The translations under genes were made by a program, and so were the position numbers. From NCBI GenBank assembly GCA_003427395.1, contig BFEA01000010.1:4763487-4817511 (forward strand): a DNA stretch of 54,025 bases. Direction: 5' to 3'. Under the pieces are notes generated by a model that was given only the letters and a program-made list of their open reading frames with translations, did no database searches and was not told the origin of the DNA. Positions 365 to 31,465 of this stretch are shown here, one piece after another; the first letter of the stretch is position 1; each line of letters starts with the position of its first letter. The DNA is from Chara braunii (Eukaryota; Plantae; Charophyceae).

Positions 365-369
365 CGCAG

Positions 370-3329: not shown

Positions 3330-3521
3330 ATCATCGAGTTGCGTGTGGAGAACCGCGAGCTCTTCCTCGCTCATGCGATAGATGCATCCTTTCAGCGACA
3401 CGACACTGGCCTCAAGCATGGTCTCATGGGAGATCGGTCGATTTGGCACCATACCGGTAGGAGACTTGAAGATGTCGGCGAACTCGTCGAGTGATCGCAC
3501 CACTCGGGGGTCCAAAGACAA
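3330..3521 (-). pseudogene. Ty3/Gypsy pol fragment: start of reverse transcriptase, truncated
   Basis: EFADIFKSPTG...PISHE...IYRMSEEELAVLHTQLDDL is the typical pre-RT segment. The expected continuation (xxGWIRPS...SPxxAP) is missing. Confidence 0.85.
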
Positions 3522-3529
3522 GTCTGTAG

Positions 3530-7999: not shown

Positions 8000-10900
8000 G
8001 TAGGGGGGGGAAAACGTCAAGGGAATCCGGGACCATTAACGGGACAAAGTGTCGGGGACCACCGACGGGACAAAGTGTCGGGGACCACCGGCGGAACAAA
8101 GTGTCGGGAACCACCGTGAGGAAGACAAAGTGTCGGACCACCGGCGGGACCACCAACGGGACAAGTACCGGCAGGACCATCGGCGGGACTAGTACTGGCA
8201 GGACCACTAGCGGGACTAGTGTCGGGACTGGCACGGACAAGCGGCGGGGAGTTGTGGAGGCCAGGAACAATTGTGGTGTGACGGGAGGTGCAAATAAATA
8301 AAGCAAGGGACACCGTCAAAATCAAAGATTTTGACGACCAAGAATATTAGCGCCACTAGCATAAGCACTAGTGGGAGCAAACAGGAAGGCCAAAAGGAAA
8401 AGAAAAAGCGAAGAAACATGTGATGAGAGGCATGGGAGCAATCAGAAAAATCTCGGATTGACCTCCCCCAAGAAAATGGTGTCAAAGGAGACTCCATGAG
8501 AGAAATGGACCTCCGGGAGAAAATCAGAGTATGAGGGTCTACCATTTGGAAGGGATAGAGGCAAACGGAGGCTCTCATGGGTATGGGAAGGCCACAAGTG
8601 CAGTCCGAGAAATAACGGACTGACCCTTTGGGAAGGGCCAAAACTAAGAGGAAGAGCCTAGAAAAGGGCCTTAACGGCTAGTTGACACTTAGCATGCAAA
8701 AGAAAAAAGAAAAAGAAAAAGGAAAAGAAAAAGAAAAAGAAAATGGGAGGTGAGAGGGAATGAGTGAGTTAGCCGTCAGTAGGGACTGCAGCAAGTAGGG
8801 ACTGGCAAGTCCCTACTGTCCACAAGTGGAGGGAAAAAGAAAAGAAAAAAAGAGGAAAGAAAAAAAAAGTCAAAAGGGCACTAACAACCAAAAACGGCCA
8901 CCTAGGGGATGCATTTGTGACCAGATTCATTCTGGCATATGTCGGTTACAAAGTATCTTGATTTTCTCTTGATTTTGCAGAAAAAATCAAGAAAAATCAA
9001 GCCCTCATGCAACCGAGATACAACGGATTGCATGAGGTAGGCCAAACACATGTTTTAGGTGCACCGGGAGCCAAAATGGAAACCGGAGGCACTTGGGAAT
9101 TGACCGTTTTCTTTTCTTCTAGTTTGAGGCTAGTTGTGGGGCAGTGGGACTAGGAAAATGCCCCCTACTGCAGTCCGAGTTGCAACGGAATGCATGGGGA
9201 AGGGAAAATATAAGTTTAAGGTGCATCCGAGGCCAATATTGAGCCCGGATGCACTCAAAAGTTGGACGCTTCATTTTCTTTCAGTTGGGGGCAAGTTATG
9301 GGGTTGTAGGACTAGGAAATTGAGCACCATTGCAGTCCGAGAAATAATGGACTGCCTGGGGATGCCTAGGCCAAGAGAAAATGAGTCGCGGCATGCCCCA
9401 AAGAGCTAGAAAACGTTGTCGTAGGTCTAGGGGACGGTGACGGTAAATGGTGACGACAAGGTGGGGGTCTCACGACCGGAAATAATCAGCATGCTAGATA
9501 CATGGGAAGAATGGTTTGGGACTGTCGGGGACAAGGGGAGTCCCAAATAAAAATGGAACGCCAACCGGAGCGACACCGGGGACTAAACGAGTCCTAATAA
9601 AAAAATTGTCGGAAATTGGGATTTTGTCGACGGTGCCGCCAGCGGGACAGAAAAAATGGGACTAGCACGGGAAAGTGGCGAGGACTTGAGGTGTCCCAAG
9701 GGGAAACCACAAGCCAATAGGGGGAGTGGATGCACGAGGCCAACGACACCGTAAAGATCAAAGATCTTGACGGTGGAAAATATTAGCACCACTAGTGCAA
9801 GCACTAGTGGAGCCCAAGTGGGAGAACTAGCGGTGAAAAGAAAAGAAAAACAAGAGATGGGAGGGCTGCCCAGCAGTCCGGGATATCTCGGACCAGCTAG
9901 GCATGAGAAAATAAAGTTCCAAGGGGCCCCGTGCCGAGAAAAGGCTGTCAAAAGAAAATCGGAGCCAAGGGGGCTCAAAATTGAGATTAACGGCAGCGAA
10001 ATGAGCCCCTTAGGAGCATGGGGCGGACCATTATTGAAGTCCGAGATGTAACGGCCAACAGCCGGCCATGAACCTGGCCATGAATGAGGTTCCAAGGCCT
10101 AGAAAGAGGGTGCACAACTGCTTGGCACTTGTTACAGCAAAAATAAAAGAAAAAGAAAAGAAAAAAAGGGAGAAAATAGAGGAAGAATGAGACAAAACGG
10201 GAGAAAAAGGTGGAGGAAAATGTGTCGGCCTATTGGGACTGCTGCAGTACAGACTGGCAGGTCTCAATGATGACCTCATCCCTCCTAGAATGAGGGAGGG
10301 CAATCTGGATTGCAGAGATATGACCCTTGGGGCCATATCTCCACAATATCTGAATTAAAAAGAAGAAAATAAGAGAAAATGCAGAAGGAAAATGACCGGT
10401 TTTCTTCTGGACCATGAATCTGAGATTTAGATTCATTGAGGAGATAATATGGCCATTTTTGATGAGGTCACCACAAACGGCCAACTCCGGAATGAGTTGG
10501 CAGCCCAAAATGGAAAGAAATAAAAGGTAGAAAAAGACAAAACTGTGCATTTGGCCCAAACAAAGGAGCAGATGCACCAAAAATTGAAAATGTGGGCTTT
10601 GGGGCCCAAAACTGAAGCAAGGACCACCATGGGGTAGCTCGGAATAATGCTGGCCTTGGATCTTAGCCTGATCCAAGGCTGAGAATGCACCGCCACATGG
10701 AAAAATGTCCCGGCCTACCCAAGGGAGGCCAAAATCAGAAAAAGTCGAAAAAAAGGCCTACAAGGCCTTTTTCTTTCAAGTAGGTTATCCCTTGGGCCTT
10801 GGACTCAAGGGGGCAACATTTTTTAAGGGGCATGAAGCTTGAAAGAGGCCCAAGGGGCAGTCCGAGTTGGTACCAACCACTCGGACTGCATGTATCAGGC

Positions 10901-11493
10901 CAAAATGAGGCCCAGGTGCCCTCGGAGATACCTAGTAGTGAAAATTGGCCATAGGGGGTACCTCGGTTCACCATGGGGCACATGGGGAGGCCCATGGGCT
11001 GACCAAAGCACTGTCCCCAACCTATATAAGCTGGGGAATCAGTCCGCCATACTCCGATTTGCATGAGGAGTGCCCATGCTGCCAAGGTGAGCCCATGAGA
11101 GCTCTACACTCACATGAAGTGAAGAGAGGGGAACCCCTGCCAGTTTGTGAGGTCTAGAAGAGATTGTGAGCTAGTGTGTGGAGCTCTAGAGGCTAGTGGT
11201 AGTGGGGAAGGTGATCCGCCATAGCCTCTAGGCTATGAAGAAGAAGGCAAGGCTAGAAGGAGTCCCATCAGCCCTCCTAGAGGGGAGGACTCCATAGCTA
11301 TAGAGATAGGAGCCGGTTGTAGCATGGGAGAAGGAAAGGAAAGGAGAGAAAGGAGGGCTTGAAGGAGAAGGAAGCCATAGCCAAGGGGGTGTTTGAACAA
11401 GAAAGGAGGAGACTTCATCAAGATTGGTGCTTCGTTCCAAGACACCAAGGAGGTGAGTGGAGAGGAGGGGCTTCTCCTCATCCTTCTTCTTCT

Positions 11494-12185: not shown

Positions 12186-12987
12186 CCCCGCTGTGCTTTA
12201 ATTGGAATACCGCATGCTTTCACCCCCTGTGTTCTATTCGAACACGGTAATTGAGAAGTAGGTAGGATGTTGTTTTTCCACTTTTTAAACTACTATTGCT
12301 GCTGCTGTTTCTGATAGCTGTAGACCCTTAGCTACTGATAAGGTCTGGCCGGACCAGACATCTGCTATTGCAAGGAAAAGCAAGTGGCCAGCCGCCCGAC
12401 GCAGGACCGCCCCGAGAACCGCAAACGGGCGAAAATGACCCGGGAGCACCCGTATGACAAACCTGTCAAACCTGGGGTATGAGGCCTGAAACTTCTCAGA
12501 CCTCATATCCTAGGCATAAACAGATGGCCTGCAGACCCAGCAGACCATCGGAGTCCGTTTTTTTGAAAAATAAAAAAACGGACTTCCCCGAAACTATTCG
12601 CCTTGAGGCCGGACGACGCCCGAAACAGGCAAGTCGACACAAACGACATCAGAATCAAGCCAAACCTTACAGAGGCCTTCCCTGTGGTACAGTGAGAGGG
12701 ACCACCAAGTTTGGAGTGATCCTGAGGTGGGTTGGGACAGGAAACACAGACCTGTGTTTTTCAGCTCTCCGTACTCAACAAAAAAACAGCAAAATGGCAA
12801 AAATGTCGGAATCTGCAAACTGCAAATTCTGAGGATTTTTCTGCAGACTGTGACTGCTGCAAAACTGTGTTTTCTGCATATTGGCTGTAGGATTAGTACT
12901 GTAGGACTGTGTTTTGTGTCCGGGGTTAGGCAATAGGTCGGAAGACAAACCCGGACACTTAGATTTGGGGAAAACGCCGAGCACGAC

Positions 12988-13945
12988 CCTCCACCTTCTT
13001 CCTCCACCACCTCCTTCACCCATCCACCATAGCCAACCATCCTCCACCTGCTTTCTCCAACACCTCCTTCACCCATCCACCATAGCCAACCACCCTCCAC
13101 CTTCTTTCTCCACCATCTTCTTCACCCATCCACCATAGCCAACCGTCTTCCACCTTCTTCCTCCACCACCTCCTTCACCCATCCACCATAGCCAATCACC
13201 TTGCACCTCCCTCCTCCACCATCTCCTTCACCCGTTCACCATAGCCAACCATCTTGCACCTTCTTCCTCCACCATCCTCTTCATCCATCCACCATAGCCA
13301 ACCACCTTGCACCTTCTTCCTCCACTATGTCCTCCACACACCCACCATAGCCAACCACCTTCCACCTTCTTCCTCCTCCATCTCCTTCACCCATCCACCA
13401 TAGCCAATCACCTTTCACCCTCTTCCCCCACCATCTCCTTCACCCATCCACCATAGCCAGCCATCCTCCACCTTCTTTCTCCACCACCTCCTTCACCCAT
13501 CCACCATAGCCAACCACCCTCCACCTTCTTCCTCCACCANCTNCTTCACCCATCCACCATAGCCAACCGTCTTCCACCTTCTTCCTCCACCACCTCCTTC
13601 ACCCATCCACCATAGCCAACCACCTTACACCTTCTTCCTCCTTCATCCTTTTCACCCATCCACCATAGCCGACCACCACTTCACCCATCCACCATAGCCA
13701 ACCACCTTGCACTTTCTTCCTCCTCCATCCTCTTCACCCATCCACCATAGCCAACCACCTTGCACTTTCTTCCTCCTCCATCCTCTTCCACCATAGCCGA
13801 CCACCCCGCACCTTCTTCCTCCTCCATCCTCCTCACCCATCCGCCATAGTCGACCACCTTGCACCTTCTTCCTCCACCACCTCCTTCACCCATCTGCCAT
13901 AGCCAAACCACTTTGCACCTCCTTCCTCCTCCGTCCTCTTCCGCC
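12988..13945. repeat. 53-bp minisatellite, about 18 copies
   Basis: CATAGCC recurs at 13028, 13081, 13134 and onward. Unit approximately CCACCTTCTTCCTCCACCACCTCCTTCACCCATCCACCATAGCCAACCATCCT. Confidence 0.95.
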
Positions 13946-14063
13946 ACCCGAAAGATCGGGAGCGAAAGGGGAGGCACCAAAGAGCGCAAGGAACGATAGG
14001 TAGGACGGTAGGGCACGCTAGGGGGTAAGATTGATTAGGAATTTTGAGTTTCTTTCTCCTTCC

Positions 14064-14270: not shown

Positions 14271-14362
14271 ATTGTCTTTCCCTAGAGCCTTGACCCTCAC
14301 CTTACCCTCTCCCCCCTTCTTCCTTCTTGGCACGTGACTAACGCCCCGCTCACTTGTTACAT

Positions 14363-16213
14363 TGTCAGGGAACGAACGGCGAAAAGGAGCGGTCCTCACC
14401 TGGTGGAGAAAGAGGGCAAGGGAAGGGTAGCCGGTCCCTTGCGCCACCAAGAAGGAGAAAAGGAAAGCCCTTTGAGGATTTGGGAAGGCAAGGTCCTCGA
14501 GAAAAGTAAAAGAGAGAGAGTTTGGCACAAAGTCAGTTGACTCAACCATTTCCCCAACTGCATGACTAAGGAAACATAGCTTGACTGTGGAAAGGAAGGG
14601 AAAGGCAAGGGAAGCATAAAGGAGAAAGGAACTTAGGCTTGCGGGAAGGGCGATGTGTTGACCCCAATGAGGGATTGTATTGGTCTTTGCATGTGTGTGG
14701 ATTTGTGCAGGTGAGTAGCTTAGAATGACTTGAGCGGGATTGGGTCCGGGGTACGTGAGCAAAAGGGAAGGATGAAGATCGGATGGAAAGACCGAAGGCC
14801 TAGCATGAATTCTGAGACGGGCGGGCCTAGGTGTAGGATGCTTGGAACAAAGGGGCGTGGCTTTGCAGGACGAATGTGCGTTTTGTCTCTTTGAATGCAA
14901 TATGGAAGCCCAAAAGGACTAAGGGCGGGTGAAGGATATATGAACAAGGATGCATGTGTCAAGCAAAGAAAAGGGGTAGGGGCTAGGGGATGGATGGTGT
15001 CGCCTCGCCCCGATGATGCCATAGGGATTGTTGTGTTTAGTGAAAAGGTGTGTGGCCCAAGGATGACGCTTGGCCTACGCACAAAAGAAGAAAAATTATC
15101 AATAACCCCCACCCCTGGGCTGCATGAGTATTGGAAGGAGCAATTGTCTGGCCACATCTAAATGAATCGAGAAAACGTCGCGAGTGACCGTAAAGCTACC
15201 ATCTAACGCGAGAGCGGAGCTACAACCCCCAATGTTAAAGCCCTCTCGTAAATGGCCTATCCCCATCCATCCCATAGCACTAGGTGGGGGTGCCCCTGAG
15301 ACGAACGCTCCGCGCCCTGAGCTTGAGCGTGGGCGGAGCAGAGCCAACTGGGACCCGTAGTGGGGTCGACACAGGCTCGAAAGTCTTTCAGGGTACGACC
15401 TTACCAAAAAATGGTGGAGGCGTCGGGTGTGGGTTAAATTGACTCATGCGATTCCGAAGGGGACGCCCGACGCATGACCATGTACATAATCGAAGAGAAA
15501 GAAATTGGACTTGTGTTTGCTCTTCCCCTTGAGAGAATCAGACTTGGGGGCGGTTGGGCGCGTGGCATGGCCAGGCCTGGAGGTATAACATGCATGTTAC
15601 ACCTTATTAACCTACTCCTCGGTGGAGTGGCTCTAGCCCCCCTTCCTCCGGTGCTGGTGTTCGCCAGTCCCGGGAAGCCTCGGGCAAGTCGCAGGTCGAC
15701 CCCTCCTCTTCGTGCGAAAGAGGGGCTCCGGTTACCTGGCAGGCGGTTGGTGCTTCGGCTTTGGCTGAGGCCCAATGAAAATCCCGCGGTGGAGTGATCC
15801 GACCGACTGGGTGCTTTCCTCCCTTCTTCTTCTGAGCCCAGTGGGCTCATGCACTATACACTTGAAATGCTTGAAGGAACCAACATGAACACAACGATTA
15901 TCAAGAAAGAACAATCCTACCCTATGAAAGGACAGACTATAGAAGATAAGGGGAATGAAGGGAGTTGCTAGACTCCAAGGAAAACTAGCTCACCTTTTAA
16001 GATACTCACGAGAAGGAACCAGCCACTGTGTATGGACAATAAGGGGAGTTGCACATACAGTCCCGAGAGAAAATTGTGAGATGTGTAAGAGGCGCTGGGT
16101 GTACCAAAGGGAAAGACACTTGTTCTATATGTGTCTCACTTGGGACTTGTGGATTGTATGAGAGGGTAATTGAGCGTCCTGCCACTTCGGAAGGAAAGGG
16201 TGGGTCTGCACCA
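14363..16213 (+). repeat. Putative 5' LTR
   Basis: Starts TGTCAGGG and ends ...TCTGCACCA, followed by 2 nt and TGG (PBS-like geometry). The region is non-coding. There is no second LTR in the window to confirm the boundaries. Confidence 0.45.
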
Positions 16214-16215
16214 GC

Positions 16216-16233
16216 TGGTGCAGGTTGCGAAAC
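16216..16233 (+). promoter_or_regulatory. Putative primer-binding site TGGTGCAGG...
   Basis: TGG lies 2 nt after CA and is part of the perfect palindrome CTGCACCAGCTGGTGCAG (16206-16223). Confidence 0.4.
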
Positions 16234-17146
16234 GTTGCTCTCTTTGAAGTTCACCGGGTTCCATGTGCGGAGGTCGGGCCACCGAGCTGTTAGGCAGGAG
16301 TTGGTCTCGTCGGTTGATTAGTAGCATTCCCTCCTGGGCGGGCCGAGCATCGCTCGACGCCTTACCTAGGCGGGGTGTGAAGCGTCTCCTCAGGCGGGGC
16401 GGCTGCTTGTCGACAGACGGCAGGGGGACCCCTGCATGTGGGGCACGGAGGGAGCCTCAGAGACGATTAGTAGCTTCTCTCAGTACGATATGGGAAAGGC
16501 TGATTCTTGTCGGACCGATGGATGTGAATGCCCGGACAGTTGACTTTTGTCCTTACCGGGGTACGCGGGGTGATTCCCGGTGCCAATGGGGGTGTGCAAG
16601 AGCAGCAAGACGGGATGGGGTATTCTGGACAAGAAGGTGAGGGTGTCCCCCCACTGGAGTCCGGGTACCGCGCTCGCGACGGTTGAGTTGTGCTTGAGGT
16701 ACGAGATAAAACTCTGTCGAAAGTAACAGTGGAGAGACCATTTTTTGGGAAAAGGCCGGTGAGGAGATGACCGGCCTGTGTGCGAGGATTGCCTGACTTT
16801 TTTCTTTCTTTTGTGCCTCCCTTTGTAAGGCTGCTTGAGATTGTTGGGAAGGGACCAAGTTTCCAAGTCTGTTCTCGCCCCCTATCTAAGTCCACGAGAG
16901 TGAGAGAAGATGGGGATGAGTAAGGATAGGAGTCGGAAGGAAAGGAACCAAGAGAAGGAATGTCGGCTGATGGTGACCAATTGAAGGTGGAACGGGGCGA
17001 TGATACTCGGGAAATGGGCAAGGGAAATTAGGGAAACCCGGATGAGGGGTCTGAAACAATTCTCATCTAGGAAGAGAGTTAGCTTGACCAAACGGCCCGT
17101 GCGGTGCTCTTTTATGGAAAACAGGAACCGGGGCTGGGAAAACGAG

Positions 17147-17950
17147 ATGGCGCGGCGACTGTCGTCTCCAATCTATTCTAACGGTTCGGAAATGCCGATA
17201 GATGTAAAGGACGGGGTATCCATCGTCCTCCCGGATGAAGGAACGTGGACAGACCTGGAGCCAGCCTATCAAACTATGATGCTGGACGAGAAGGACGCGT
17301 TCCTCTGGATAGAGACGATATGGACTAAGGTCAGCTTGACGAGATTGTCGCCGAGCTTGATGGACTTGGAATTTCGAGGAACGGTGGAAGCCCGAGGGTG
17401 GGTCTACCTATCTCAAGAAAGTGAAAATGCGATGGTGATAGAATTGGTATTGGGGACTGCGTCGGACTTGCTGTTTAAGCAGGCGGAGCGAGAGGTAGTA
17501 TGGGCGGCGTGTCAACGGATGGAAATGGAGAGGGACAAAGTAGAGGTGTGAGTGGAACTTGGAGATAGGAGAAATGTGAGGCGACCCCTCAGAACGATGA
17601 GATGCGTACTACCCCCGTTTCTGGTTGACGCGCTCTTTGGAACCCGGAATAGATTGGAGCAGATATGTCGGTCAATGACAAACCTGAGACTGTACCAGTG
17701 TGCTCGACATGACTTCCTTAGGCTGTTGGTAGAAATGGGGTCTTTCGGAGGGAACTGGGTGGAAGAGTTAGCCGATATGCGAAACTACCTTAGCACTGAC
17801 GACGTCTATGTCCCTAGTCCAGTACATTGGCAGATAGTTTACCGAAATGTGGCAATAGGGGAAACCTTCTTAGAAGGGCTGAGGGAGTTGTTCTATGACG
17901 AAGAGGACGATTTCAGCAATGACGAGAACGATGACGAGATAGAGGATTGA
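17147..17950 (+). pseudogene. Accessory ORF A (unknown family, ~267 aa, one internal TGA)
   Basis: ORFs 17000..17551 and 17552..17950 are in frame across TGA 17549. Motifs DGVSIVLP, FLWIETIW, GWVYLS, LPPFLVDALFG, GSFGGN and IVYRNVAIGETFLEGLRELF are shared with ORFs B-D. Confidence 0.8.
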
Positions 17951-18015
17951 GACTTCTGAGAAGCAAGGCTTACCCGGGGGAAAATGGGTGGTCGGCTCTG
18001 TGCAGGAAGGAAGCG

Positions 18016-18770
18016 ATGGCCAGGGAACTACTGCTAAGGGACTACACATTTAAAGGATGGGAGCCGAAACGAGTCGAAGGGGGGGTAGAAATGTCCATAC
18101 CGACAGATAATGAATGGAGAGGGACCACCTGTGATTAGATCGGACTCGAGATTGCACCAGAATTATCGTACCTGTGGATAGAACAAATCTGGAACCTGAT
18201 AAGGAGGAGGAAGGATGGGAGGAGATTGCGGAAGGAAGGGTGGAATCGGTCGGGACGGTCATCCTCTCCGAGCAAGGGTGACACCTATTTTGCACAACGC
18301 TTGCGGCAGGACATAGTCCGCTGTAGCTTCTGGAGAATGTCGAGGCGAGGACTCAGAGGGCAGGCTAGAGGTTTGCCAATAAAGGATGGGATGTAGTCCA
18401 TAGTAAGGTCGTGATGGGGGGATGGAAGGAGCTTAGACCTCCCTGTCTGCGAACCAAGATTTGGGTACCCGAGTTCGTGACGGACTGGTTTGGGGGTTTT
18501 GACCACGTCGCAGTGGTGGCTAGCACTATGGAGCGGGTACACGTAGATTGTGCATGGTTGTCATAAGAGTTTTATAAAACGTCGTTGAAATTTGGGCCCT
18601 TCCATGGCGACAGAGTCTGGGAGGTCCTCATCATTTTGAATATGGACAGATACGATCAACTAGAGGTAGCCCCAGAGATCAGGGAAACCATAATCCGCAG
18701 GGAGGTAGCGGCAACACCTTGCTATGTGGATGATGTGTTCAAACTATTCGAGGTAGTGTGGTTCGATTAG
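18016..18770 (+). pseudogene. Accessory ORF B (paralog of A; one frameshift, several stops)
   Basis: MAR...GGVEMSIP...YLWIEQIW (frameshift ~18192) ...GTVILSEQG...VPEFVTDWFGG...GPFHGDRVWEVL...IIRREVAATPCYVDDVFKLF. Confidence 0.78.
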
Positions 18771-18988
18771 GGGCAGGAAAAACCTGAACTAGCAGGGTAA
18801 GCTAGGGGGTAGAGGGGAGAGGAAAAGAAGGAAGGGGAAAAATAGGGGGTAACATAGATGGGAAAACATGTAATGTATGCGGACTAGCCAAAGATAGGAG
18901 TACTAAGAGAGGGAATGGGGTGTCCGGCTATTGTGGGGATCACTACGGCGTTGCAGGATAAGGATCAAAGGCGGGTAAAGGACACGTG

Positions 18989-19758
18989 ATGGCACGAAGG
19001 AGGACGTTCCTCGAGGATCGCCCGCTGGGGATCGAGCCGCCAAGGGAAGTGGCTGGCGGCATAGAAGTCAGCCTACCCACCATAAATAAGATCCGGCACC
19101 CGGTGGTGGATTGGGTCAGGGTCGAGCTTATGGAAAATACGGTTTACCTGGTGACCAAGGTTGAATGGCGTGCGGATGGAGAGGACGGGTGGAACCCGGA
19201 CCCGCGGGGGCATGTGCATCGGAAGGTTGGTTGTATGTGTCGGAGGATGGATGGCGCACGTTCGGGATCCTACTAGCATCTGGAGAAGATTCACTGAGCA
19301 TGTTCGAAGAAGCATGGCATTTAGTGTGGCAGGCGGGGTTCGAGTTCGCAGACCCGGAGTTCGGTGACGTAACAGCGGCCCTTAGGGTGCCCATGACCGG
19401 GAGTTTCAATCTGCCTAGTGAGAATGTTCGAATGAAATTGCCCTCCTTCTTACTGGAAAAATTGGGCGGGCTGGATCTTGTCAGGCGAGCAGTGGCCGAC
19501 CTCGCCACCCTGACATTTGAAGAAGCGACGGTCTACCGGGAATATTATCGGGCCTTCCTAGAGATGGGGCCGTTCGACGGTGAGCAGAGGTACGAGGTGT
19601 TGTGAATACTGTGCACCGTATTCGCCACAAGGCCTAAAGTTCCAGTTGTTAGCGATGAGGTTCTATGGGGCGTCGCCTGAAGAGAAATAAAGCAGGGGCT
19701 GATTTACATAGATGACCTGTACCACCTATACGAGCTATCAAGAGAGGAGGCAGGCTAA
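18989..19758 (+). pseudogene. Accessory ORF C (paralog of A; one frameshift, two stops)
   Basis: MARRR...GGIEVSLP...(frameshift ~19205) EGWLYVSEDG...LPSFLLEKLGG...GPFDGEQRYEVL*...VA*REIKQGLIYIDDLYHLY, ending at TAA 19756. Confidence 0.78.
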
Positions 19759-19902
19759 AAAGAGAAAAGAAAAGAAAAGGGAATAGGGAAAAAAAGGAGG
19801 ACGGACAAGAGGTAGGAAGTTGCCTAGTGGTGGTCAGAGGAATGGATGAAATAAGCAGGACTCGCTTGCTGTTTAAACTGTGCAGGGAACCGCTAATTGA
19901 CA

Positions 19903-20682
19903 ATGGCAATGAGACGCGCCCAGATGTCGAGACGACCCACGCACCCTCGGCCGCCCACGGAAAGCGGAGGCGGATGGGAGGTGTCACTTCCAGCAAGCTA
20001 TGTGGTTCGAGGGATTGACACATAATGGAGAGTTGTGACCTTGGGGAGGGACCAAGTGTTCATGATGGTAGAATGCTTGTGGAGTGGTATGAGGTTCAAT
20101 AGGGGGCCAGGGGACGATCTATATGCTGACTTGAGGGTGACGGGGACCGTATACCTACCGGAAATTGAATGGCACATGCTAGGAACCGAGATGGCACTAG
20201 GACATGGGTTGCTACCAATCTTCCGAAGGGCTGCCTAGGCAGTAAACCGGATAGGACAGGAGGTTCGGGGGAGAAGGAATGCAGGGCTGAGAACTCAGGT
20301 GGAGGTAGGAGGCTGGCGAGAGCTTAGGGCCCCGATGACAGGGTTGTGGTGTCGAGTACCCCGTTTCATGGTAGACTTGGTATTCGGCAGCCTCTCGAGG
20401 GCAAGAGACTTGGTGGACTCGACCCTAACCTGGATCCACCACTTCCAGCTGCAGACGACGGGAATGTTTTACGATGTATCAGTAAGGCATGGGCCGTTCT
20501 GGGGAAATCGGGCCCATGAACTACTCATCGAAATCCTGATATTCGGAGTACCGCGTTTGGCGTTTGAAGAATATGAACCAATAATTATCAGGGAGATAGA
20601 AATGGGAGAAAACTACCTTGTGGGGGTGGCTAACCTGTTCGAAGAACCTGACGAACAGGACAGGCATGAGGGTCCAGCGTGA
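19903..20682 (+). pseudogene. Accessory ORF D (paralog of A; two in-frame stops)
   Basis: One frame from ATG 19903, with stops at 20023 and 20236: GGWEVSLP...FMMVECLW...TGTVYLPE...VPRFMVDLVFG...GPFWGNRAHELL...IIIREIEMGENYLVGVANLF. Confidence 0.8.
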
Positions 20683-21136
20683 GAAAAGTACCGAGGAAGG
20701 CAGCAAAAGTAAAGGCTAGAAAACAAAATGAGGGGTTAGCCATCTACGGAGGATAGTGGTCGGAGTCCTATTCTACCTGAGAATACGACAGGAAGGGACT
20801 AGGAAGACCACTACCGCTAAGGACGCTGAGGGTATCCAAAAGCGGGGAGGCAAAAGGGCCACCATCGAAAGGAGAACCGCCAACCCTGGATATCACCTTA
20901 GAACTGAGGCACGATAATGACAAAACGCCAAATCTCGGTAGCGAGCCTTCCGGCAGAGGGAAAGGTAAGCGACACCTCGCGGAGCGAGAAAAGCTTGATA
21001 AGCCGTCACGACCGATATAAGACGGAAAATATGGGAATGACAAAACATGGAGGACCTTAGGACCTGGGAACCAGGGAAGCTGTGAGCGACCGACCGTTTC
21101 GCAAATTTTTTTTTCCATGTGCAGGATTAGGAAAGG

Positions 21137-23400
21137 ATGGCGTCAGAGAAAGAGGTTGGGAACCTGCAAAGCAATGGGAGTCAGTGCACGGAAAGGAGCA
21201 CGGAACGGAACGAAGGGTCAGTAAGGGATCGAGAGTCAGCAAATCTGGAGGGAACCAAGGAAGACGGGAAGGATCTTTCGACAGGGGAAAGTTTGGGAAA
21301 ATTTGGGGGAAGCAAACGGGGATCCCAGGAGAATAAGGAAGGGAGGGACAAGGAAAGGTCGAGTCCGCGAAACTCAGATGGGGTCGTATCCAAGAAAGTG
21401 AAACTTTCGGATGCACGACGTAAGTTGGTAGAAATAGAAAAGCGAACCGCGGAGTATAAGGCAAAACTTATTGAGGAAATGATGACTGGGAATGAAAGGG
21501 GCCTTCCGGGGGAGGAACTACGAGAGGAGCGCAAGACCAGCCAGGGCGAAATTGGGCACGGAGGGAAGGATAGTAGCTGCCGGGGGACGTGTAGCAAGAA
21601 AGGGAAGGAGAAAAGGGACTCCCCGGACGTAGAAGCGGAGAAAGCTACGAACCCGCCTGCCATAGACAGTGGTGCTGACCGTTTGCCTGCCGCCCCGAAA
21701 ATAACAAAGGGGTGCGATGGACTTTGGAGTCTCAGAGAAAGGGTGTTGGGATGGTTCGATCCGGAAAGAACAACAAAAACCGGAGAGAAGCAGAAGGATA
21801 GCAAGGAAGGAGAGGGGACCAGTACGGCTGGCGAAACGGGTAGCTCCGAGGGAGGTCTCAAAAAAATAGTATCCACCCTCTCCCGGGCATTGAACAAAAA
21901 TCAGGGGTACCTCGCAGATTCCAAGAGGAAACTCACCTTCGATGGTGCAAACATTACGGAATTCCTAATAGACTACGAGAACCTAGCAGCCTTGTTGAAA
22001 TGGAGCGAAGAGGAAAAGATGGACCATTTAGGGCAACATGTGTCACTGAGCCTAGGGAGAGATATAATGGTCATCGTCGCCGTCAGCGGATCCTGGAAAA
22101 AAGCCCGAAATGAAATGATGAGAAAATACTTGAAGGCGGAGAAAATGGCAACAGAAGCTGAACTGGTAGTTGTTCAGAGGAAGAACTATGCAACTTACAG
22201 CGACTTCCTGAGGGCATTTACTCTAGTGGCATTACGGATTCCCGGGGTAACAGATCGGATCATGAGCAAGTACTTCCTTAGGCAGTTCTCTGAGTTCGAC
22301 AAGAATAAGATTCTACCGGCCAACCAACTACCAGCAAGTTTGAGTACACGAGGGACGTTGACTTCAACACGGTGACAGACCTCGCAGAGAAGACAGTGGT
22401 AACCGAGACGTTAGCCTTGCTTAAGGAGGGAAAGGCCATAGACTTGACTGGAAAGACGGGAGATAAGGTGAAGAAGGGGATAGAAAGCCTGCACGAACGA
22501 GTGCACGGGGTCGATAATAAGATAGGAAGGGTAGAAAATGCACTATTGGTAATGCAGGCGCAAGTATCCCGACCCGCCCTCCCGCCCCAAGAGGCCGTAG
22601 TTCCGGCGGCAATAGCTAACCGAGGATACGGTAGGAAGGATCCGGCCAATGAGCTGTGCAAATACTGCACGATGGTCGGAGACTTTTTGCGAGCCTGCCC
22701 AAGACTCAATCACGGTATTATAAGACAGAGGTGTAGCAGGTCACTTAAAGACGAAATTTTCGGACCCCGGGGGGAACGGATAAACAGGAATTCGCCTGGT
22801 GGAATCCGGCGCGTCATTATTGCCCTGAACAATCTTGACGTAGCAGCCGTAGAAGCCGAGCCGGTAGCCGACGTCGTTTGGGACCAGCCGCCGGGGCGCG
22901 GAGCACAAGTCAATTTCATCCTAGAGAGTAATGGACAGGATAGGGTGAACATTGCCACCCAACGGGCAGGGGCGGAAAAGAAACTTATCCGAGACACAGT
23001 AATGGAGGAAGTTGCACGAACCAGCGCGGAACAAGTTGAGCCTGGGACCGGGGAACCAGAGAAAGTCTACGGAAAAACGAGAGAAGAAGAGCCGACAGAC
23101 AAAGTCACGGCAGCGAAGAAGAAATTCAGATATCAGATCTCGATTTTAGCCATGCCACTAATCGATGACACCCTGAGCAAGTTGTTGGGAACCATGGTGT
23201 TTGTATCCTTTCAAACTATGTTGCAAGCAAGCCCGAGACTTCTCAAAGGACTCAGACAACTGCTAACTCGCAGACGCATAGAGGTAGAAGAGGCTCTGGA
23301 ACCGCAGGAAGAGGAAACGGAGGAGGCTGAGGCACCGCAAGGGGTCACCAACCTCCAGAGGATTCCAGAAGACTTGGAGGACCTGGAAAAAACCTTTGCA
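21137..23400 (+). pseudogene. gag with a degenerate CCHC zinc knuckle (frameshift ~22322)
   Basis: LTFDGANITEFLIDYENLA...W is capsid-like. CKYCTMVGDFLRAC at 22657-22698 is Cx2Cx4(H->D)x4C. Confidence 0.85.
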
Positions 23401-26400
23401 GACATTCGCTTAAGCTTGTCAGACCGAGAAGGTGGCGAAGTCATGAGGGCACCGCCCGGAACGAAGCTCAGCTTCCATGCACTGCCCGTGGGAAAGTTGA
23501 AAGTCCAGATTGGGACCCATCATACTGACGCACTAGTAGACGGGGTGTGGAAATCACGCTCATAAGAAGAGACTTCGCAATGATCACGGGCTGTACCGTA
23601 AATAAGGAGGTAACAGGAAGCATCCAGGGAGCCGACGGAGAAATTCCGTTCGCTGGGTACGTCACCAAATGCGAGGTCAAGGCTGGGGTCAGGGAGTCGA
23701 TCTGGTCGTTTCAGCGGATGACTGTAATGGAAGAAATGGACCACGACATAATCCTCCGGAGACCATGGTGCTCCAACGTAGAAATGATAGGCGTGCACTT
23801 GCACGATGGCACATACATGGTAGATATAGAGGACCCAGTGACTGGCCGGGGAGAGCTTCTCCGACTCCTTGGGACAGGTGGAGACCCTCCAAAGGGGAAA
23901 TTGGCAACTTTGTCATCTACGTTCGAGGAGAGTGCTCGAAAAGGAGCATTCGCCCGAACGGAGGGTATGAGAGAAAGAGTGAAAATCATGATCAAGGAAG
24001 CCTTTAGCAAAAAGGAATGGATTAAGATGGGTCTGCCTCTGAAGAAAAAGAGGCAAGAAGACGAAGTCTTAGGAATCATGGTGGCTGAGCAAGAGTCGGA
24101 AGTCAAACTTGGGGCCAGCTTGCCCAAACTGAAGGAATGGTGAAAGGAAACGCCGGGGGTAGCGGTCGAAATTCCGGACCTGTTACAACTCGTCAAGGCT
24201 ATTAGGTACCATAAAGTAGGGGTGGACCCGGCAGCACTTGCCAAATTTGAGGATGAGGTTCGAAAGAGCTACTGTTTGAACGGGAAGGTAGTCAACATCC
24301 AACCCCGCGTCGCAGAAATAACGAAGCCGAGTCCGACCGTTTATTTTTTAGAAGAATGATCCCAGAAGGAAGTGTTCGGAAGTATAAACCAGTAGGAAAG
24401 AAAGGTAAGCTGGTTCCGATCCTAGTGGAGACGTCAAAGGAGGAGGCCATGGAGAAAGAGGAGAAAATTTTGAAGGCAATAAGGGAGAGGCAAGCGGCGG
24501 AAGGGCATCGGATACCCGACGAGGTACCAGACACCATGAAAATATGAATAGATGGGTTCCTAACGGAGGAAGAAACCCGGCTGATAAAAAGGACATGCCA
24601 AGAATTTCACTTGGCATTTGCATTTAATGACCATCAGAAAGGACGATTGGAAGCGAAGCTAATTTCCCCCGTTAGGATCCACACGGTGGAGCATGAATGT
24701 TGGAACGACAAAGGGTCTGCCTACGAGTTCGGAATAGCAGCAGAGGTCACAAAATTACTCAGACCTAAGATAGATTCATTTGTGGTGGAACCCACTGCGT
24801 CCCCCTACGCGAACAAGTGGTTTGTTTTTCGGAAACCCAACAAGACACTCGGGTGGATCCAAGATTTGCAGAAGCTGACTGCAGTGACAATCCGAGATGT
24901 GGGATCGCTTCCACAAGCCGATCTGCTGGCAGAATCTCACGCTGGACGAAGCATTTACTCCCTGATAAACCTGTATTCAGGGTATGACCAGCTGCCACTA
25001 GATGTCAGGGATAGACCATACACTGCTATGCACACCCCTGTAGGGCAGCTGCAGATGCAGGTAACGCCTATGGGCTTTACGAACGCTATGGCGGAAGCGC
25101 AGAGGAGGATGCTTGCGGTAGCCGGGGACATGTTCCCAAAAAAATGCGAACCGTATATAGATGACAATCCTATAAAAGGCGCACACAACAAGGATGAGAC
25201 GGAGGTCCAACCGGGGGTTCGAAGATTCGTCTGGGATCACCTACAGGACATCAAGGATTTACTCCAGCGTTTCCTAGTATATAATATCACCGCTAGTGGA
25301 CCAAAGAGCATCCTCGCGGTCCCAGAGGTGACCATACTAGGGTTTCGCTGCGGGGCCTATAGAAGGAAGCCTGACCCGACAAAAACAGATAAGATCTTTC
25401 AATGGCCAACACCCTTGCGCACCACGACGGAGGTACGAGCCTTCCTGGGAGTGGTCGGGTTCTGGCGGATCTTTATCAAAAGCTTTGCCAAGATAGCCGA
25501 GCCTATTCGCGCGATGATTAGAGAAGAAGGAACTATGGAATGGACCGAGGAAAGGGAAGCAGCGGTCCAGACCCTCAAGGATATACTGACTTCTGACCAA
25601 GTCACCTTGGCAGCACCCTGTTTCAACGACGAAAAAAAACGACCGTTTATTTTGTAGACGGACGGAGGACCTTTGGCAGTAGGAGGTGTCCTAATACAGA
25701 AAGACGAGGAGAGCAAAGAAAGGCCAATTAGGTTCGAAAGTAGAACCCTGAACTCAGCAGAACGGCGGTACTCCCAATTCAAAAAGGAGGTTTTAGCCGT
25801 CCTACATTGCCTCAAAACCTTTCAAACGTACCTATTCGGAAGGCGGTTTATCTTGAGGATCGATCCGACCAACGTCGCGGGAGCATTAAAGAACTATAAG
25901 CCTATAGACCCGACTGTTGGGAGGTGGATAGGCTTTATCTGGCAATTCGATTACAAGATCGAGCGAATTGCGGGGCTCCGGAACAAGGCAGACGGGCTAA
26001 GTCGGATATGCATCACACCGGAAGGGGTAGAGGATGCGGAACCAATCGACGCCTTCTTGGAATACGAGGGAGGAACCCTCGCCGTGGACAATGAGATGAC
26101 GAGTCTCGCATGCACACGAGAAGAATTGTTGATTTAGACTTTGGAAAGAGGGCCGCCTGCCATAGTTGCGGAGCTCAGGGAAGGGTCAGTCACCACAGCG
26201 AGGCGTAGGGATGAAAAGGATTCGTGGGGGGCAGCAGTGGGGCCGAAAGAGGAGTTGATGACAATGGTCGTTGAAGGGGGTCGGCACGCCGTGATGTGCC
26301 TAGTTGAACCGTGGGCGCAAAGGGAGTTGAAGTATTTAGTGAATCAGACTAAAAAAAAGCGAGATATGAGCCAGGAAGGACAATAATTTTTCCTTGTACA

Positions 26401-26520
26401 GATGTATGACGGCATCTTCCGAGAGATCGGCCTGCTACTTATAGGGAACAAGCAGCCTATGGAAGTCAGCCTTAAGGCAAGAGAGGAAGCTGAAAAGTAT
26501 GTCTTGAGGAGCGGTCACCT
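23401..26520 (+). pseudogene. pol: protease, RT, RNase H; frameshifts and stops; integrase core absent
   Basis: PR: ALVDG/EITLI...HDIILRRPW. RT: NKWFVFRK, INLYSGYDQ (first Asp->Asn), PMGFTNA, YIDD at 25154. RNase H: FIL*TDGGPLAVGGVL, RFESRTLNSAERRYS, EVLA, RIDP, NKADGLSR. Confidence 0.93.
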
Positions 26521-26899
26521 GTAACAGTGTTTTCGTTAAAAGTGAAATTGTTTTCATGTTCAATTTTTTTTTCAAGTGTGAAATAACACATATAAGAGAG
26601 GAGCAAATGAGGAAAATAACTATGAAACAAGGCAAAATGGTGAAAACTTAGCATTGGAAATTTTGAGAAATATGTCATTTGGACAATAACATTTGAAAAT
26701 CGTGGAAAGCAATACCAACCATAGAAACTATTGTTAACCAACTATTGTCAACCATCAACAAAGTGTTCAATGACACATACAAACTATTGAGACTATTCTT
26801 AACCATGAACAAAGTGTTGCATGACACATACCACTTGAAACTGTTATTAACCATCAACAAAAGTGTTGAAGTGTTTCATACTCTGCGTATCTGGAATGT

Positions 26900-27708
26900 T
26901 CACTCATGCTGGACCATCGACAAAATGTCGAATGCAATTCTATGCCTCATATACGGGATGTTATCTTGCGAGAAATCGAATGGTGGAAAGTGACCTTTAG
27001 CTAGCAAAGATGCAAAACCTAACATAAAACCACCACAACTACAACCATCATGTTGGACGGGCATCCCATCAAGCGATGTCTCGAAAGATGTCGTAAGATC
27101 GTCCACATGATATGTTTCATGAAGATTTTGACGTTTGAACTCCATTCTAAAAAACGCGGCTCATACTTCAAGCGGTGCGAGGCGGTCGCCGCGAGGGAGA
27201 GAGTCTACAAGCTGGAATTGACACTTGCAACCGTCTATTCTAACACATGCCAAAGCCCAGTGGTTTCCAAAATTCAAAGGGATAAGTACGAAGTTAAAAT
27301 CAAAAATATTTTTTCCCCTGACCCACTTCATTCCCTCACAGTAAGCAATTTCTCTCGACGTTGCGGATGCCAATCTGACATAGAAAAAAGAATCTAAAAT
27401 ATACACAGATGGAATGTCCTTCGGACTCTCGTCTCTAATCTCTCCTCTAAACATCAAACTCTCTCTGGCATTATCGTTGTCGATCTGGATGGCTAGCAGA
27501 TACAAATTCACGGCTTCATCGTTCAACCATCCTTCTGCTTCAATGATGACCATGATGTCTTTCTTTTCCACCTTCCAGTCACCCTTGTGAACAACAATGT
27601 CGTATTCTTCATTATCTTCACTGGTGCTCACAACCCTTTTAACATACTGCATCTCGACCTCAGTGAGGCGTTGCGTTGCTAGAGGAATCTTGAACGACCA
27701 GCCAGACA
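26900..27708 (-). pseudogene. Ulp1/SENP-family cysteine protease (peptidase C48) domain, one in-frame TGA
   Basis: GWLNDEAVNLYL, ILDSFFY, VLIPLNFGNHWAL (His), LVDSL (Asp), PVQHDGCSCGGF (Gln/Cys), FDFSQDNIPYMRHRI. ORFs 27161..27724 and 26900..27145 are in frame. Confidence 0.93.
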
Positions 27709-28733
27709 CTGCATAGAAACACACAGGTAAACAACAACGGTATGTTTAAGACTTCCATACAAGTGGTGCCTTTCCGAAAATACATATAAGAAGCGAACAT
27801 GAGTTCATTACGGTGCTTGTTTGCGTACTTCGCTGTCGTTGCCGCTTTCCACAATAGACAAAGTGCAAACCTCACGGTGCAATTTCTTCCCTTGTTTCGT
27901 CCCTATCCCCACAGTTGTAAACATCCGTAGAGCAGCTGGCTTCACAAATGGGATCGTCACATGTTCGTCTCGTTTTTTAACTGTTTTTGGCAACAACGGC
28001 AACGTTGACAAGGCTTGCAAACCACGACATATAATATTCTTGTCTTTGTTCCTTTGCGAGTGCACGCGAGGCGCTTTCCACAGTCCTTTACGCATGTCTG
28101 CACGTTCATCAATGTAGAGACCACAATCATGACCGATAGTAACAAGCAATATGAGTGATGTTCGCTATAACATTATTAAAAATCCACCTAAACAACGTGA
28201 ATGTCAATGAACATTAATAGCAGTAAAATATTAAGAGTCAATCTTGTACTTCATAATATGAGTGACGCTCGTTATAACATTATTAAAAATCCACCTAAAC
28301 AACGTGAATGAGCACGCTACATATATGCAAATAAACATCGAGTATTTCCAATTAAGTGCGGCAGAAAAAAATGAAAAATCAACTCATGTTTTACACAAAA
28401 TATTACATAAATTTTCCCTACGTGAGATAAGCGCTCACCTCTGCGACTAACTGCAATTTTCCCTTCAATATCGTCTTTTTTCGCACCTCCCAACTGCCTT
28501 TCTCTGACAGGGGATTCTTCGATGGTTAAAACTGGAACAACTGGGCTCAACTGTTGGAGAGGAGTTTCAAGTTTGTTCTCTTTTCCTTCCTCCACAGGTG
28601 TGTGTTGCTCTGGAGTAGTCCGTACAATATGGCCTTCATCCTCTTCGATGTCGGGTGCTTGGATTGCTGCTTTTCCCATGAGCCCCTAAAGAGTGTCGTT
28701 TCTTCGTGCAGTAACACATACAACAGGCGAAAC

Positions 28734-29063
28734 CTGAGACCCTCCTTGCGCCTTCTCTGATGATATCGGACTTCGAAATTCGGTAGGAATGTCGAAGTCG
28801 CTGCCGAGGGTCTCTCCATGGAATAGACTGTTAGACTCGACTTCCGGTTCGAGCTCCCCCACAAACATGGTTTCCTCCATTGTTGTTGCCGTTCCGCATG
28901 CAATAGGCGCATCCTGAGACCCTTGTCGTGNNTTCTCCGTCAATATCGGACTTNGAAAATCNGTAGGAATNTCCAAGTCGCCTCTGAGTGTCTTTTCATC
29001 GAGCGGAGTGGTAGGCTCGACCTGCGGTTCNGTCACCCCCGCAAACATGGTTTCATCCATTGA
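28734..29063. repeat. 180-bp (60-codon) coding tandem duplication
   Basis: CAAACATGGTTTC at 28862 and 29042; MDETMFAG...GSQ vs MEETMFVG...GSQ. Confidence 0.85.
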
Positions 29064-30724
29064 TGTCCTAAGTCGCCCTTGACTTTCCAATCCGCATGAC
29101 ATAATATCCATAGACTCCCACATATGGTCATGCGGGCTGCCAATATTTGCCTTCTCGCCAACAGGGAAGACACTTGTGCCGCTGGCATCATACCATACAA
29201 CATCTGTCATTGTGGTACTTGTGAGTGTGAGTGTCGTGGTGGCACTTAGTCCACCTTCACAATCATCAACTTGTCTTTCTGCAGTGGACACTTTGACTTG
29301 CTGCGAACCACCGACATCGATACGTCCTCCTACAGGACCGCCGCTTCCCACGTGCTCGCGATGTGGTTGACCTCTTGTAGCACCTCTTGACGGCTGATTG
29401 GACGCAGGCCCTTGTGATGTCCCTCCACCTTCACCACTCCCTTTCTTATCATTTCCTCCCTCACCACCACTTGGGTGTCCAACTCCCTCTCCACTCGCAC
29501 CACCGCTAGAACCTTGTCCTTTTCCCCTTCGGTGTCGTCATCCTCCTCAATATGCTAGTTGTATCCATATGCCGGGCTTGTTACTCTATCATAAAATTTT
29601 TCCAAGTACTCAAATCTTCGTAATGCTTTGAGTTCCTGGAAAATCTGCTGCTTCCTTGTGTCCACTCTTGATGGGGAAACATTAGGATTGAGTCGAGAAA
29701 GCCGCATCTTGATCTGATCCTCTGCATGTGTATAAAACTTCGATTGCGCTATACGTCTGTGAGAACAAAATTGCCACTGCCCGTCTTGTTTTATTGCCAT
29801 CACCCATTGTCCTTTCCCCAATGCCGGTTGAAAATGTTGTGGATGCCACACGATGTCGTGACCCCACTTATCATCATCCATCATTGTATGGTCATCTCGA
29901 CAAACGATAGGCCCCATCAATAATGCGATGTCCGCGGGGATCTTATCCCCAATCTCATACTCATACTCCAGCACCTCTGCAGGTTCAGGTTCTTGTTGTG
30001 CGGTATGAGAACGAAGGAAACGTTGCAACAAAGCAGGGCTTTGTGCAAATCCTGTGAAACTCGTTAATAACTCGGGGGAGGGCTCAACACCGAACAAAGC
30101 TCTAAAGGCCGCCGCTGGATCGGACATCAATCCTGCAGATGATGACACTGTCGTTGCTAAAGCGGTCGTGCTGTCAGGAGGTGTAGTCAGTGGAAGTGTC
30201 GTTGTGTCGGCAAGCACGACACCAGAAATTCCAATTGAAGGAGTTCCTGATGACGTCCCTGTTGTAGCCATCTTTTGAGAAGACGAGGTACTTGTCCTTT
30301 CCCTTTCGCATGCCAAGGCCGTTTGCAAAGTACCATCGACACTTTCCTCTTCCGAATCTTCAGCATCGAACTCTTCACCCTCCGGAATGCAAGTTGCGTA
30401 GGCAGAGACTGTGAAAGCACCGATTCGTTCACCAAAATACATGATTTCCAATCGGTCGAGGAATGAAATCTCTTTGTCTGAAGAAGCTTTATGATAACCT
30501 CGTAGAAGGGTCTCAACTTTTCGCCTGCGAGCAACATATGCACGGTCTCTCCTGTTTTCAGGCCGCATCTCGAAAAGGAACTGCCAGATGTTCAACATAT
30601 TTTGACCCACTTTGTGCACAAAATCACGAGCTTCATCATGGCGGGGTGGTGGCTTGATGAATTTCGCATGATAATCTCGAGTGTCGACCATCTTGTTTAT
30701 GAATTGTACAAGGAAGTCGAACTT

Positions 30725-31465
30725 CATGTCCTCTCCTTCCAAAACTACGCAGTGGCAATTACTTCTTAATAGCTCCCACACCAAAGCTGCATGACCCTTT
30801 CCCAAAAACACAATAGCTTCATCCACTGGACATAAGTGTTCCAACGTCTTTACCATTGCATTTGGGTCCCTCTCCATTCCTTCATATACAACTTTTTCTT
30901 TCGGCTCCATACCCGCCATTTTCCACTTCGTTGGCAGAAAGTTCTTCTCCAATACATCCGTGAGCACCTTTGGCTTCCGCTCTCGCCGCGCAAGTGTGGA
31001 AATGTCAGTTGCTCGAGTACTGAAAGATGGTCCCGTTGGTTGGATATCTTCGAACAACGGTATTGTATTCCGGTGGTAGTCCCCATCATTGGAATACATA
31101 ATAAGCACCATTCTGTCCGCATCTTCCAATGACAAATTTGCAATCTTATACGGATGGCGGACCTTCTGTTGTTGTTGGCGAGTCCACTTCGCGACTGACA
31201 TGTGAATATCCGACTGGACCACCCGCCTGAAAAAGGTCAGCTCACAGGACCGCGGAATGAAGCATATCAGCGTCCAATACTCCCCTCCCACCATTTTCAT
31301 GAATTGCCAGAGTCCATCAAAAATCGGCTCTGTCCACTTGGCCATTTGAGTAGGATGGCACAAATCAAGCACTGTTGTGTAACATGTCAGATGTCGGATG
31401 ACCTCTTTACAATCCATGACATCTGAGACATCGCTAAGATCTGATTGGAAAGGAACAAAAATAGA
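30725..31465 (-). other. Beta-class N6A/N4C methyltransferase-like domain
   Basis: Motif order IV-TRD-I: MDCKEVIRHL..TTVLDLCH (DPPY position, degenerate), then ERDPNAMVKTLEHLCPVDEAIVFLGKGHAALVWELLRSNCHCVVLE (FxGxG SAM-binding loop and terminal acidic residue). Confidence 0.55.

Follow-up and report, generated by a model that had tools for sequence, protein, structure and literature searches.

The stretch analyzed here (referred to as the window) comprises 54,025 nucleotides (nt) of contig BFEA01000010.1 of the charophyte Chara braunii. It contains four consecutive open reading frames (ORFs) on the forward strand, located upstream of the gag region of a Ty3/Gypsy retrotransposon, a type bounded by long terminal repeats (LTRs). 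The ORFs, named A to D, were read from the sequence at the following positions:

17147..17950, + strand: ORF A, 267 amino acids (aa), acidic C-terminal tail, one internal stop
18016..18770, + strand: ORF B, about 251 aa, five stops, one frameshift near 18202
18989..19758, + strand: ORF C, about 256 aa, two stops, one frameshift near 19219
19903..20682, + strand: ORF D, 259 aa, two stops

The spacers between the ORFs are 65 to 218 nt in length. After repair of the stops and frameshifts, four sense-strand ORFs of about 250 to 270 aa are present before gag, as described in an earlier note on this DNA. The starts given there as MA(R/M)(R/E) read MAR, MAR, MAR and MAM for A, B, C and D, respectively, and all quoted sequence blocks shared by the four proteins were found.

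For the alignments, A to D were read through with an X at each break (267, 251, 256 and 259 aa). All six pairs aligned over 226 to 243 residues with identities of 23.9 to 31.0% and z scores of 16.1 to 43.0, and in every pair the observed score was reached by 0 of 1,000 shuffles. The proposed tandem paralogy was thereby confirmed. On the DNA level the local scores of 22 to 26 were inside the shuffle range. Since the protein alignments are significant and the DNA similarity is at chance level, the duplications are real and old, as had been supposed. The two frameshifts are private to the window copy: at each site an additional base is present in other copies (contig depth of 57 of 89 and 65 of 152), and B and C also occur as unbroken proteins (P0021 and P0041).

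For the identification of relatives, 5.8 billion clustered proteins were searched, restricted to near lengths. This resulted in 13 A-like, one D-like and two B/C-like proteins, all of them named Chara braunii. The proposed search with a hidden Markov model (HMM), run over 1.84 billion representatives, gave 66 matches. Of the 35 matches with a name or look-up, 33 were C. braunii; the other two were the B-like Logan protein P0047 (39%) and a repeat-rich false match, P0076, which gives no alignment and was rejected as a family member. All 20 long gene models checked were from Chara braunii and were distributed over contigs of 19 different lengths. No host gene relative of A to D was found among the 1.84 billion representatives, and no relative was present in the viral contigs searched. 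In the Atlas, query A gave Basidiomycota clusters at 0.92–0.93 with 134–145 shared features. This fungal kinship is a lead only, since B gave nothing above 0.83 and no HMM match could be named as fungal (35 of 66 named).

The linkage of the cassette to its gag-pol was determined in 76 proteins, P0055 having been excluded from the counts due to its 95–100% match to the window copy. A cassette ORF with an identity of at least 44% was found in 67 of them. Of these, 48 continue into the gag-pol of the same family, 15 are short and without gag-pol, and four are other fusions, so that the cassette is tied to this gag-pol in other copies as well. Gene models are predictions, yet their exon order reflects the order in the DNA and they are therefore usable for gene order. 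Adjacent paralogue pairs followed the order A-B-C-D in 14 cases, were reversed in none and were A-A in one. L001, which is DNA of another copy, shows the leader, A and then B directly at the DNA level. Subfamilies whose B and C are 51–60% identical to the window copy keep both the number and the order of the ORFs. The summed DNA contig depth of the cassette (636–2749) is inside the range of gag-pol (320–6703), depth being no copy number.

In the final tree, which leaves out the chimeric P0037 and seven more rows that were mixed or short, each of the four proteins A to D falls into a single clade of its own, with support values of 99–100 in the SH-aLRT (approximate likelihood ratio test). Before these rows were dropped, C was not one clade. 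The four separate clades are in accordance with old duplications.

Distant members were found in seven C. braunii models (P0073, P0074, P0077–P0080 and P0082; E values of 3e-10 to 1e-5) with differing downstream sequence, and in P0047, which is located on a 1349-bp Logan contig. The seven likely belong to other LTR families, since one distant C. braunii member carries a CCHC knuckle behind the domain. In addition, the Chara kinase gene model P0067 has the C-terminal portion of ORF A as its end; this is an error of the gene finder or else an exon acquired from the element.

The ratio of nonsynonymous to synonymous substitution rates (dN/dS) was determined from one pair, the window copy and L001, for which the DNA of A and B could be compared. 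It was 0.112 for A (245 codons; 49, 23 and 101 differences by codon position) and 0.125 for B (217 codons; 34, 30 and 89), whereas the controls gave 0.75–2.4 for shifted frames and 0.67–0.74 for the leader. In a protein-level test against neutral simulation, the observed scores of A and B were reached in 0 of 200 runs. The median identity to the window copy was 73% for A, 72% for B, 57% for C, 75% for D, 70% for gag and 85% for the reverse transcriptase (RT). The claim that the ORFs were retained under selection thus holds for A and B, whose dN/dS values are far from 1; for C and D the results are mixed and exist on the protein level only. We regard the paralogy, the fixed order, the linkage to gag-pol and the purifying selection on A and B as shown with high confidence.

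The surrounding parts of the element were located as follows:

14363..15406, + strand: candidate 5′ LTR, TG...CA, 1044 bp, directly preceded by ACAT (from sequence, putative bounds)
15412..15427, + strand: candidate primer-binding site (PBS), beginning with TGG, 5 nt past the LTR end (from sequence)
15428..17124, + strand: long non-coding leader, 74% identity to L001 at 16330–17110, no codon signal
21137..23565, + strand: gag region, broken, with weak matches to Retrotrans_gag (E 0.015) and DUF4100 (E 0.055) and with gene-model matches
23529..26521, + strand: truncated pol with protease, RT and RNase H, followed by the initial residues of the integrase region (Pfam matches)

Downstream of the four ORFs, the order in the window and in the family models is gag, protease, RT and RNase H, which is the order of Ty3/Gypsy elements. 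In the family models P0040, P0026, P0058 and P0072 the protease precedes RT and RNase H, and the integrase domain (rve) comes after them. Gene models matching the gag region bear gag, zinc-knuckle and protease matches, and pol is supported by matches to RVT_1 (E 3.5e-8) and RT_RNaseH (E 5.7e-22). Of an integrase-side query only 22 residues match, at 26456–26521. The copy breaks off at about 26521, where the integrase has just begun, and gives way to other DNA that contains a gene for an Ulp1 protease. The copy in the window is dead.

No second LTR is present in the 54,025-nt window, the 3′ end of the copy being lost at about 26521, and the LTR bounds are for this reason inferred. Reads of related copies stop at a homologous CCCTACA and continue into differing flanks (loose ends at 15386–15394). 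The flanks past the LTR end read NCGN in five of five loose-end consensus sequences, and the 5′ flank of the window copy itself, ACAT (14359–14362), would fit a deaminated ACGT. Together, these flanks suggest that the element inserts at CpG.

By the acceptor-stem rule, the primer would be tRNA-Ala; no tRNA or Rfam matches were found in the window. Within 15412–15480, the candidate PBS can pair with a complementary sequence located about 50 nt downstream, which itself ends with CCA. This complement may mask the PBS or permit self-priming. For the initial 894 nt of the leader, the folding z score is -2.3 (20 shuffles). The leader at 16330–17110 is under constraint, because it is 74% identical to L001 even though A and B show about 60% difference at their synonymous sites. 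At 14350–16785 the summed DNA depth exceeds the depth of the cassette severalfold, which may be due to related or non-autonomous families having this region in common.

For structure prediction, AlphaFold2 was used with an alignment of 34 sequences for P0047. The model has a mean confidence (pLDDT) of 82.8 and a predicted template modelling score (pTM) of 0.78 and comprises two domains, the N-terminal one of the alpha/beta type and rich in beta structure, the C-terminal one made of five helices. An earlier model of A from 11 sequences had a pLDDT of 58. With the model of A, Foldseek matched nothing at E 0.001, neither in the PDB nor in the viral library; the best VIA Z score was 6.7, for a 54-residue helical piece. 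For the P0047 model, no viral structure was found at E 0.001 and no solved chain exceeded Z 5.4 in a search with the whole-chain model (best Z 5.3–5.4). The top matches were a TBC domain, chimallin and the C-terminal bundle of the F1-ATPase alpha subunit. Chimallin was the only repeated match of the N-terminal domain (7sqt, Z 5.3, root mean square deviation 3.8, 104 residues aligned; 8igg, Z 4.4; 8fne, Z 3.9), all of these values being in the background (Z below 8). The proposed monomer modelling and Foldseek search thus yielded a confident fold and no significant similarity to a known one.

With natural A, B, C and D and distant members, no Pfam family was detected at E values up to 10. A sequence search of the PDB matched only designed Pizza proteins over 30 residues without a passing stretch, and all else had E values of 0.2 or worse. 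Among the positions common to A to D, G, P, L, F and W predominate; charged ones are few and deviate in individual rows. No membrane segment was found in nine sequences (highest 19-residue hydropathy 0.76–1.39). The proteins are net acidic, with isoelectric points (pI) of 4.2–5.2 in the six tested, and the N-termini of C and D contain Arg-rich stretches. From the shared G, P, L, F and W positions, the acidic character and the lack of a membrane segment, we infer that A to D form a soluble, non-enzymatic interaction module. The family appears to be undescribed; a new fold is not proven.

The element was compared with known LTR elements. Its sequence places it among the non-chromovirus Ty3/Gypsy elements. 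Extra ORFs in sense orientation at the 5′ side are described for 33% of Tekay, 23% of TatII and 21% of Ogre elements (Neumann et al. 2019, PMC6317226), and an ORF0 is described for Retrosat2, RIRE3 and RIRE8 of rice (PMC3485330). The earlier note took extra ORFs in LTR elements to be usually single; one ORF0 is described for the Retrosat2 type (PMC3485330) and one to two extra ORFs for Ogre (PMC6431247). The ORFs of Tekay, TatII, Ogre and Retrosat2 are similar to those found here in being sense ORFs of unknown function between the 5′ LTR and gag that are kept within a family with dN below dS. In contrast to the one ORF0 or one to two ORFs described there, the Chara element has four paralogues. 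Its ORFs also differ in having neither a plant mobile domain nor another Pfam match, and an acceptor-like site is located before each of them and before gag.

Further features of these lineages were not found. Concerning Tat/Ogre, no second RNase H of the archaeal type (aRH) was detected between RNase H and integrase in P0040, P0053 and P0058 (Pfam, E up to 0.01), the 128 residues behind RNase H gave no Pfam match, and neither the plant mobile domain nor Transposase_28 is present in natural A to D (Pfam, E up to 10). Concerning the chromodomain of Tekay and Retrosat2, the sequences of P0040 and P0058 stop soon after the GPY-type module, and no Chromo match was found in them. DUF4100, weakly matched in the gag region, is presumably linked to fungal elements. 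The lack of a chromodomain and of aRH in the Chara family is shared with Phygy, Selgy and the fungal Ylt1-like elements (PMC6317226; PMC2864245). In addition, the NCGN flanks of the related Chara copies (five of five) resemble Phygy, a 4-bp target duplication being described for Phygy and Selgy, and the PBS may fit tRNA-Ala as in Selgy (PMC6317226). Flank and PBS are thus a hint that the element belongs on the Phygy/Selgy side. However, Phygy and Selgy are described as short and without extra ORFs (PMC6317226), whereas the Chara element has 5.7 kb and four ORFs between PBS and gag. A to D do not behave as env-like genes, since they precede gag instead of following pol and have no transmembrane segment.

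Next, the sequence was scanned for splice-like signals (putative junctions are marked by a slash):

14708..14716, + strand: donor-like CAG/GTGAGT in the LTR (14710), perfect consensus (sequence scan, putative)
near 16588, 16636 and 16698, + strand: donor-like sites in the leader (scan for 16636 and 16698; gene-model N-termini and L001 for 16588)
17102..17125, + strand: acceptor-like ACAG/G, 22 nt before the ATG of A, kept in L001
17999..18006, + strand: acceptor-like TGTGCAG/G, 10 nt before the ATG of B, 8 of 8 bases kept in L001
18951..18957, + strand: acceptor-like TTGCAG/G, 32 nt before the ATG of C (scan)
19879..19886, + strand: acceptor-like TGTGCAG/G, 17 nt before the ATG of D (scan)
21106..21125, + strand: T-rich tract and acceptor-like TGTGCAG/G, 12 nt before the ATG of gag (scan)

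Each of A, B, C, D and gag is preceded by YAG/G at a distance of 10 to 32 nt from the start, in the form TGCAG/G for B, C, D and gag; the AGs of the five sites end at 17124, 18005, 18956, 19885 and 21124. The motif TGCAGG occurs 10 times on the + strand (12,157 nt) and three times on the - strand. Four of the 10 are located within 40 nt of one of the five starts (P of about 5e-6, for a motif picked after seeing it). For TGTGCAGG, three of four occurrences are at starts. No ATG is present between the acceptor-like site and its start in any of the five cases. Only eight of the 135 ATGs have a purine at position -3 together with GC behind, and the five starts are among them. The donor-like site of the LTR is the sole occurrence of CAGGTRAG on the + strand of 14364–26520. 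At 14704–14716 an 8-mer of the acceptor type overlaps this perfect donor (TGTGCAG/GTGAGT), an arrangement that has the form of a recursive splice site. The acceptor-like site of B in L001 also has GT directly after it.

The gag start is located 5.7 kb past the PBS. Scanning from one cap is unlikely, because gag is preceded by 34 ATGs in the leader and a further 100 from A to gag, where 74 are expected, so that ATGs are not depleted. As each ORF also has its own acceptor-like site and a strong start, separate spliced mRNAs are likelier than the operon-like expression that had been proposed. In other copies, gene finders enter the ORF at Met1 with a linker of no more than the expected length plus three residues in 23 of 28 cases. 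On the basis of these sequence signals, alternative splicing probably supplies A to D and gag with one mRNA each. A donor located in the LTR or the leader would be joined to one of five acceptors, each shortly before a strong start, and the unspliced RNA would serve as the genome.

Complex retroviruses such as HIV-1 and the foamy viruses express accessory genes from one RNA with several splice acceptors. The expression proposed for the Chara element is similar in using alternative 3′ splice sites, with one mRNA per gene. It differs in that the extra genes precede gag, gag itself has an acceptor-like site, the genes are paralogous and there is no env. Arabidopsis Ty1/Copia elements, also plant LTR elements, produce a dedicated, spliced subgenomic GAG RNA; this involves one intron at the protease and early termination, without accessory genes (Oberlin et al. 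2017, PMC5580714). In the literature searched, neither a cassette of tandem paralogues ahead of gag nor a comparable row of acceptors was found for plant LTR elements; the Chara genome paper, which was not among the literature covered, may bear on this.

Large DNA viruses carry tandem, diverged and non-enzymatic paralogous gene families, and such families usually modulate the host. By this analogy, a role of A to D against host control of the element can tentatively be proposed, which we hold to be possible, if clearly short of an even chance. Each product would bind a different host factor and thereby loosen host control. Taken jointly, an old cassette of fixed order, expressed by separate splicing and encoding non-enzymatic helpers against host control, is the reading we favour, at somewhat less than even probability.

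Several results weigh against this favoured reading. A and B (73 and 72% median identity) change no faster than gag (70%), which is not the signature of an arms race. Protein-level selection is mixed for C, whose score was reached in 2 and 19 of 200 neutral runs, and for D (0, 47 and 126 of 200). Concerning splicing, the donor is not pinned down among four candidates and ATGs are located upstream of all of them, and the acceptor-like site of A is not of the TGCAG type. The gene models supporting the entries at Met1 are predictions, not transcripts; in six of the 23 linker cases the length is negative owing to overlap of the alignments, and 21 more gene-finder entries, into B, C, D or gag, lie within the ORF. 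In the RNA data, of which 6–13% of each raw run was read, run X6 gave about 4–30 reads over the cassette on both strands and no splice joint. The coverage profile of this run resembles a DNA run, so that it may represent DNA or unspliced RNA. Runs X5 and X7 were nearly empty, with 21 and 27 reads on 14300–21400, mostly at the LTR start. Contigs of X14 contained three joints without GT..AG ends.

An alternative with the same splicing is that A to D are subunits of one hetero-oligomer, for example a coat or shell around the RNA or particle of the element. The number and order of the ORFs, fixed across subfamilies with B and C at 51–60% identity, would fit such an assembly, as would the strong purifying selection on A and B, their slow rate and the weak likeness of the N-terminal domain to the shell protein chimallin (7sqt). 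However, that likeness is at background level and tied by unrelated helical bundles, and the element already has its own Gag. We consider this explanation unlikely, though worth keeping in view.

Likewise unlikely is a role of A to D in regulating the RNA of the element (splicing choice or export of unspliced RNA, Rev-like) or in moving it between cells or into the nucleus (movement-like). Five acceptors would require that some RNA is spared from splicing, C and D have Arg-rich starts and the leader is constrained; regulatory roles for additional ORFs are also suggested by Vicient and Casacuberta (PMC7264820). On the other hand, the proteins are net acidic (pI 4.2–5.2), and no RNA-binding or movement-protein fold was among the weak structure matches.

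The ORFs could also be real genes of one polycistronic RNA translated by leaky scanning or reinitiation, or be expressed from internal promoters, the splice-like motifs serving otherwise. The spacers of 65–218 nt are short enough to suit this and no RNA joint was listed, but ATGs are at or above expectation (34 and 100), all five starts are in strong context and the acceptor motif is enriched at starts, which makes it improbable. More elaborate, and a long shot, is a green-lineage element working like a complex retrovirus, with one 5′ exon spliced to five acceptors for Gag-Pol and four paralogous subunits of an undescribed fold; these subunits would form a hetero-oligomeric shield or an RNA-export complex by which the element is hidden from silencing by the host. 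Finally, an explanation of the ORFs as passenger DNA, acquired by capture or duplication and carried without benefit, is very improbable and for A and B largely refuted by their dN/dS of 0.11–0.13: all four are broken in the window copy, D is mixed on the protein level and two of three RNA runs are nearly empty, but the frames are open and colinear between subfamilies at 53–68% identity (among gene models selected for open frames), the family alignment gives a confident fold and no host gene relative was found.

In the remaining part of the window, further elements and repeats were observed. An ORF at 27161–27745 (- strand) encodes an Ulp1 protease domain (PF02902, E 6.9e-10), which is found in some DNA transposons, and the long - strand ORFs at 28686–34997 gave no Pfam match beyond a weak one. 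The regions 718–1875 and 10164–11323 are related, inverted repeats with arms that are 74% complementary; between them, a remnant of a retroviral-type protease is located at 3424–4113 (- strand; RVP_2, E 1.8e-9). A 53-bp tandem repeat at 12877–13947 shows an extreme C-rich strand bias (GC skew of -0.78 in 13001–14000). At 35254–39461 many short near-palindromic cores, often 43 bp apart, occur in direct and inverted orientation (families D6, D7, D9, D14 and D19). The SH3_Tf2-1 domain at 52976–53743 (- strand; E 1.8e-11) is the end of the integrase of a further Gypsy element.

Where the extra ORFs of plant LTR elements come from and what they do are open questions (PMC7264820; PMC6317226). Single sense ORFs at the 5′ side and the splicing of Copia GAG are known, whereas a cassette of four paralogues with a series of acceptor-like sites would, as far as the literature searched goes, be new. 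The family described here offers one compact, foldable protein in four diverged forms, without a known relative. Many genomic copies are on hand for tests of selection, and five exact ends of putative splice junctions are given. Dozens of annotated 'hypothetical proteins' of Chara are pieces of this element. If the proposed splicing is true, retrovirus-like expression of multiple genes arose in an algal retrotransposon without env.

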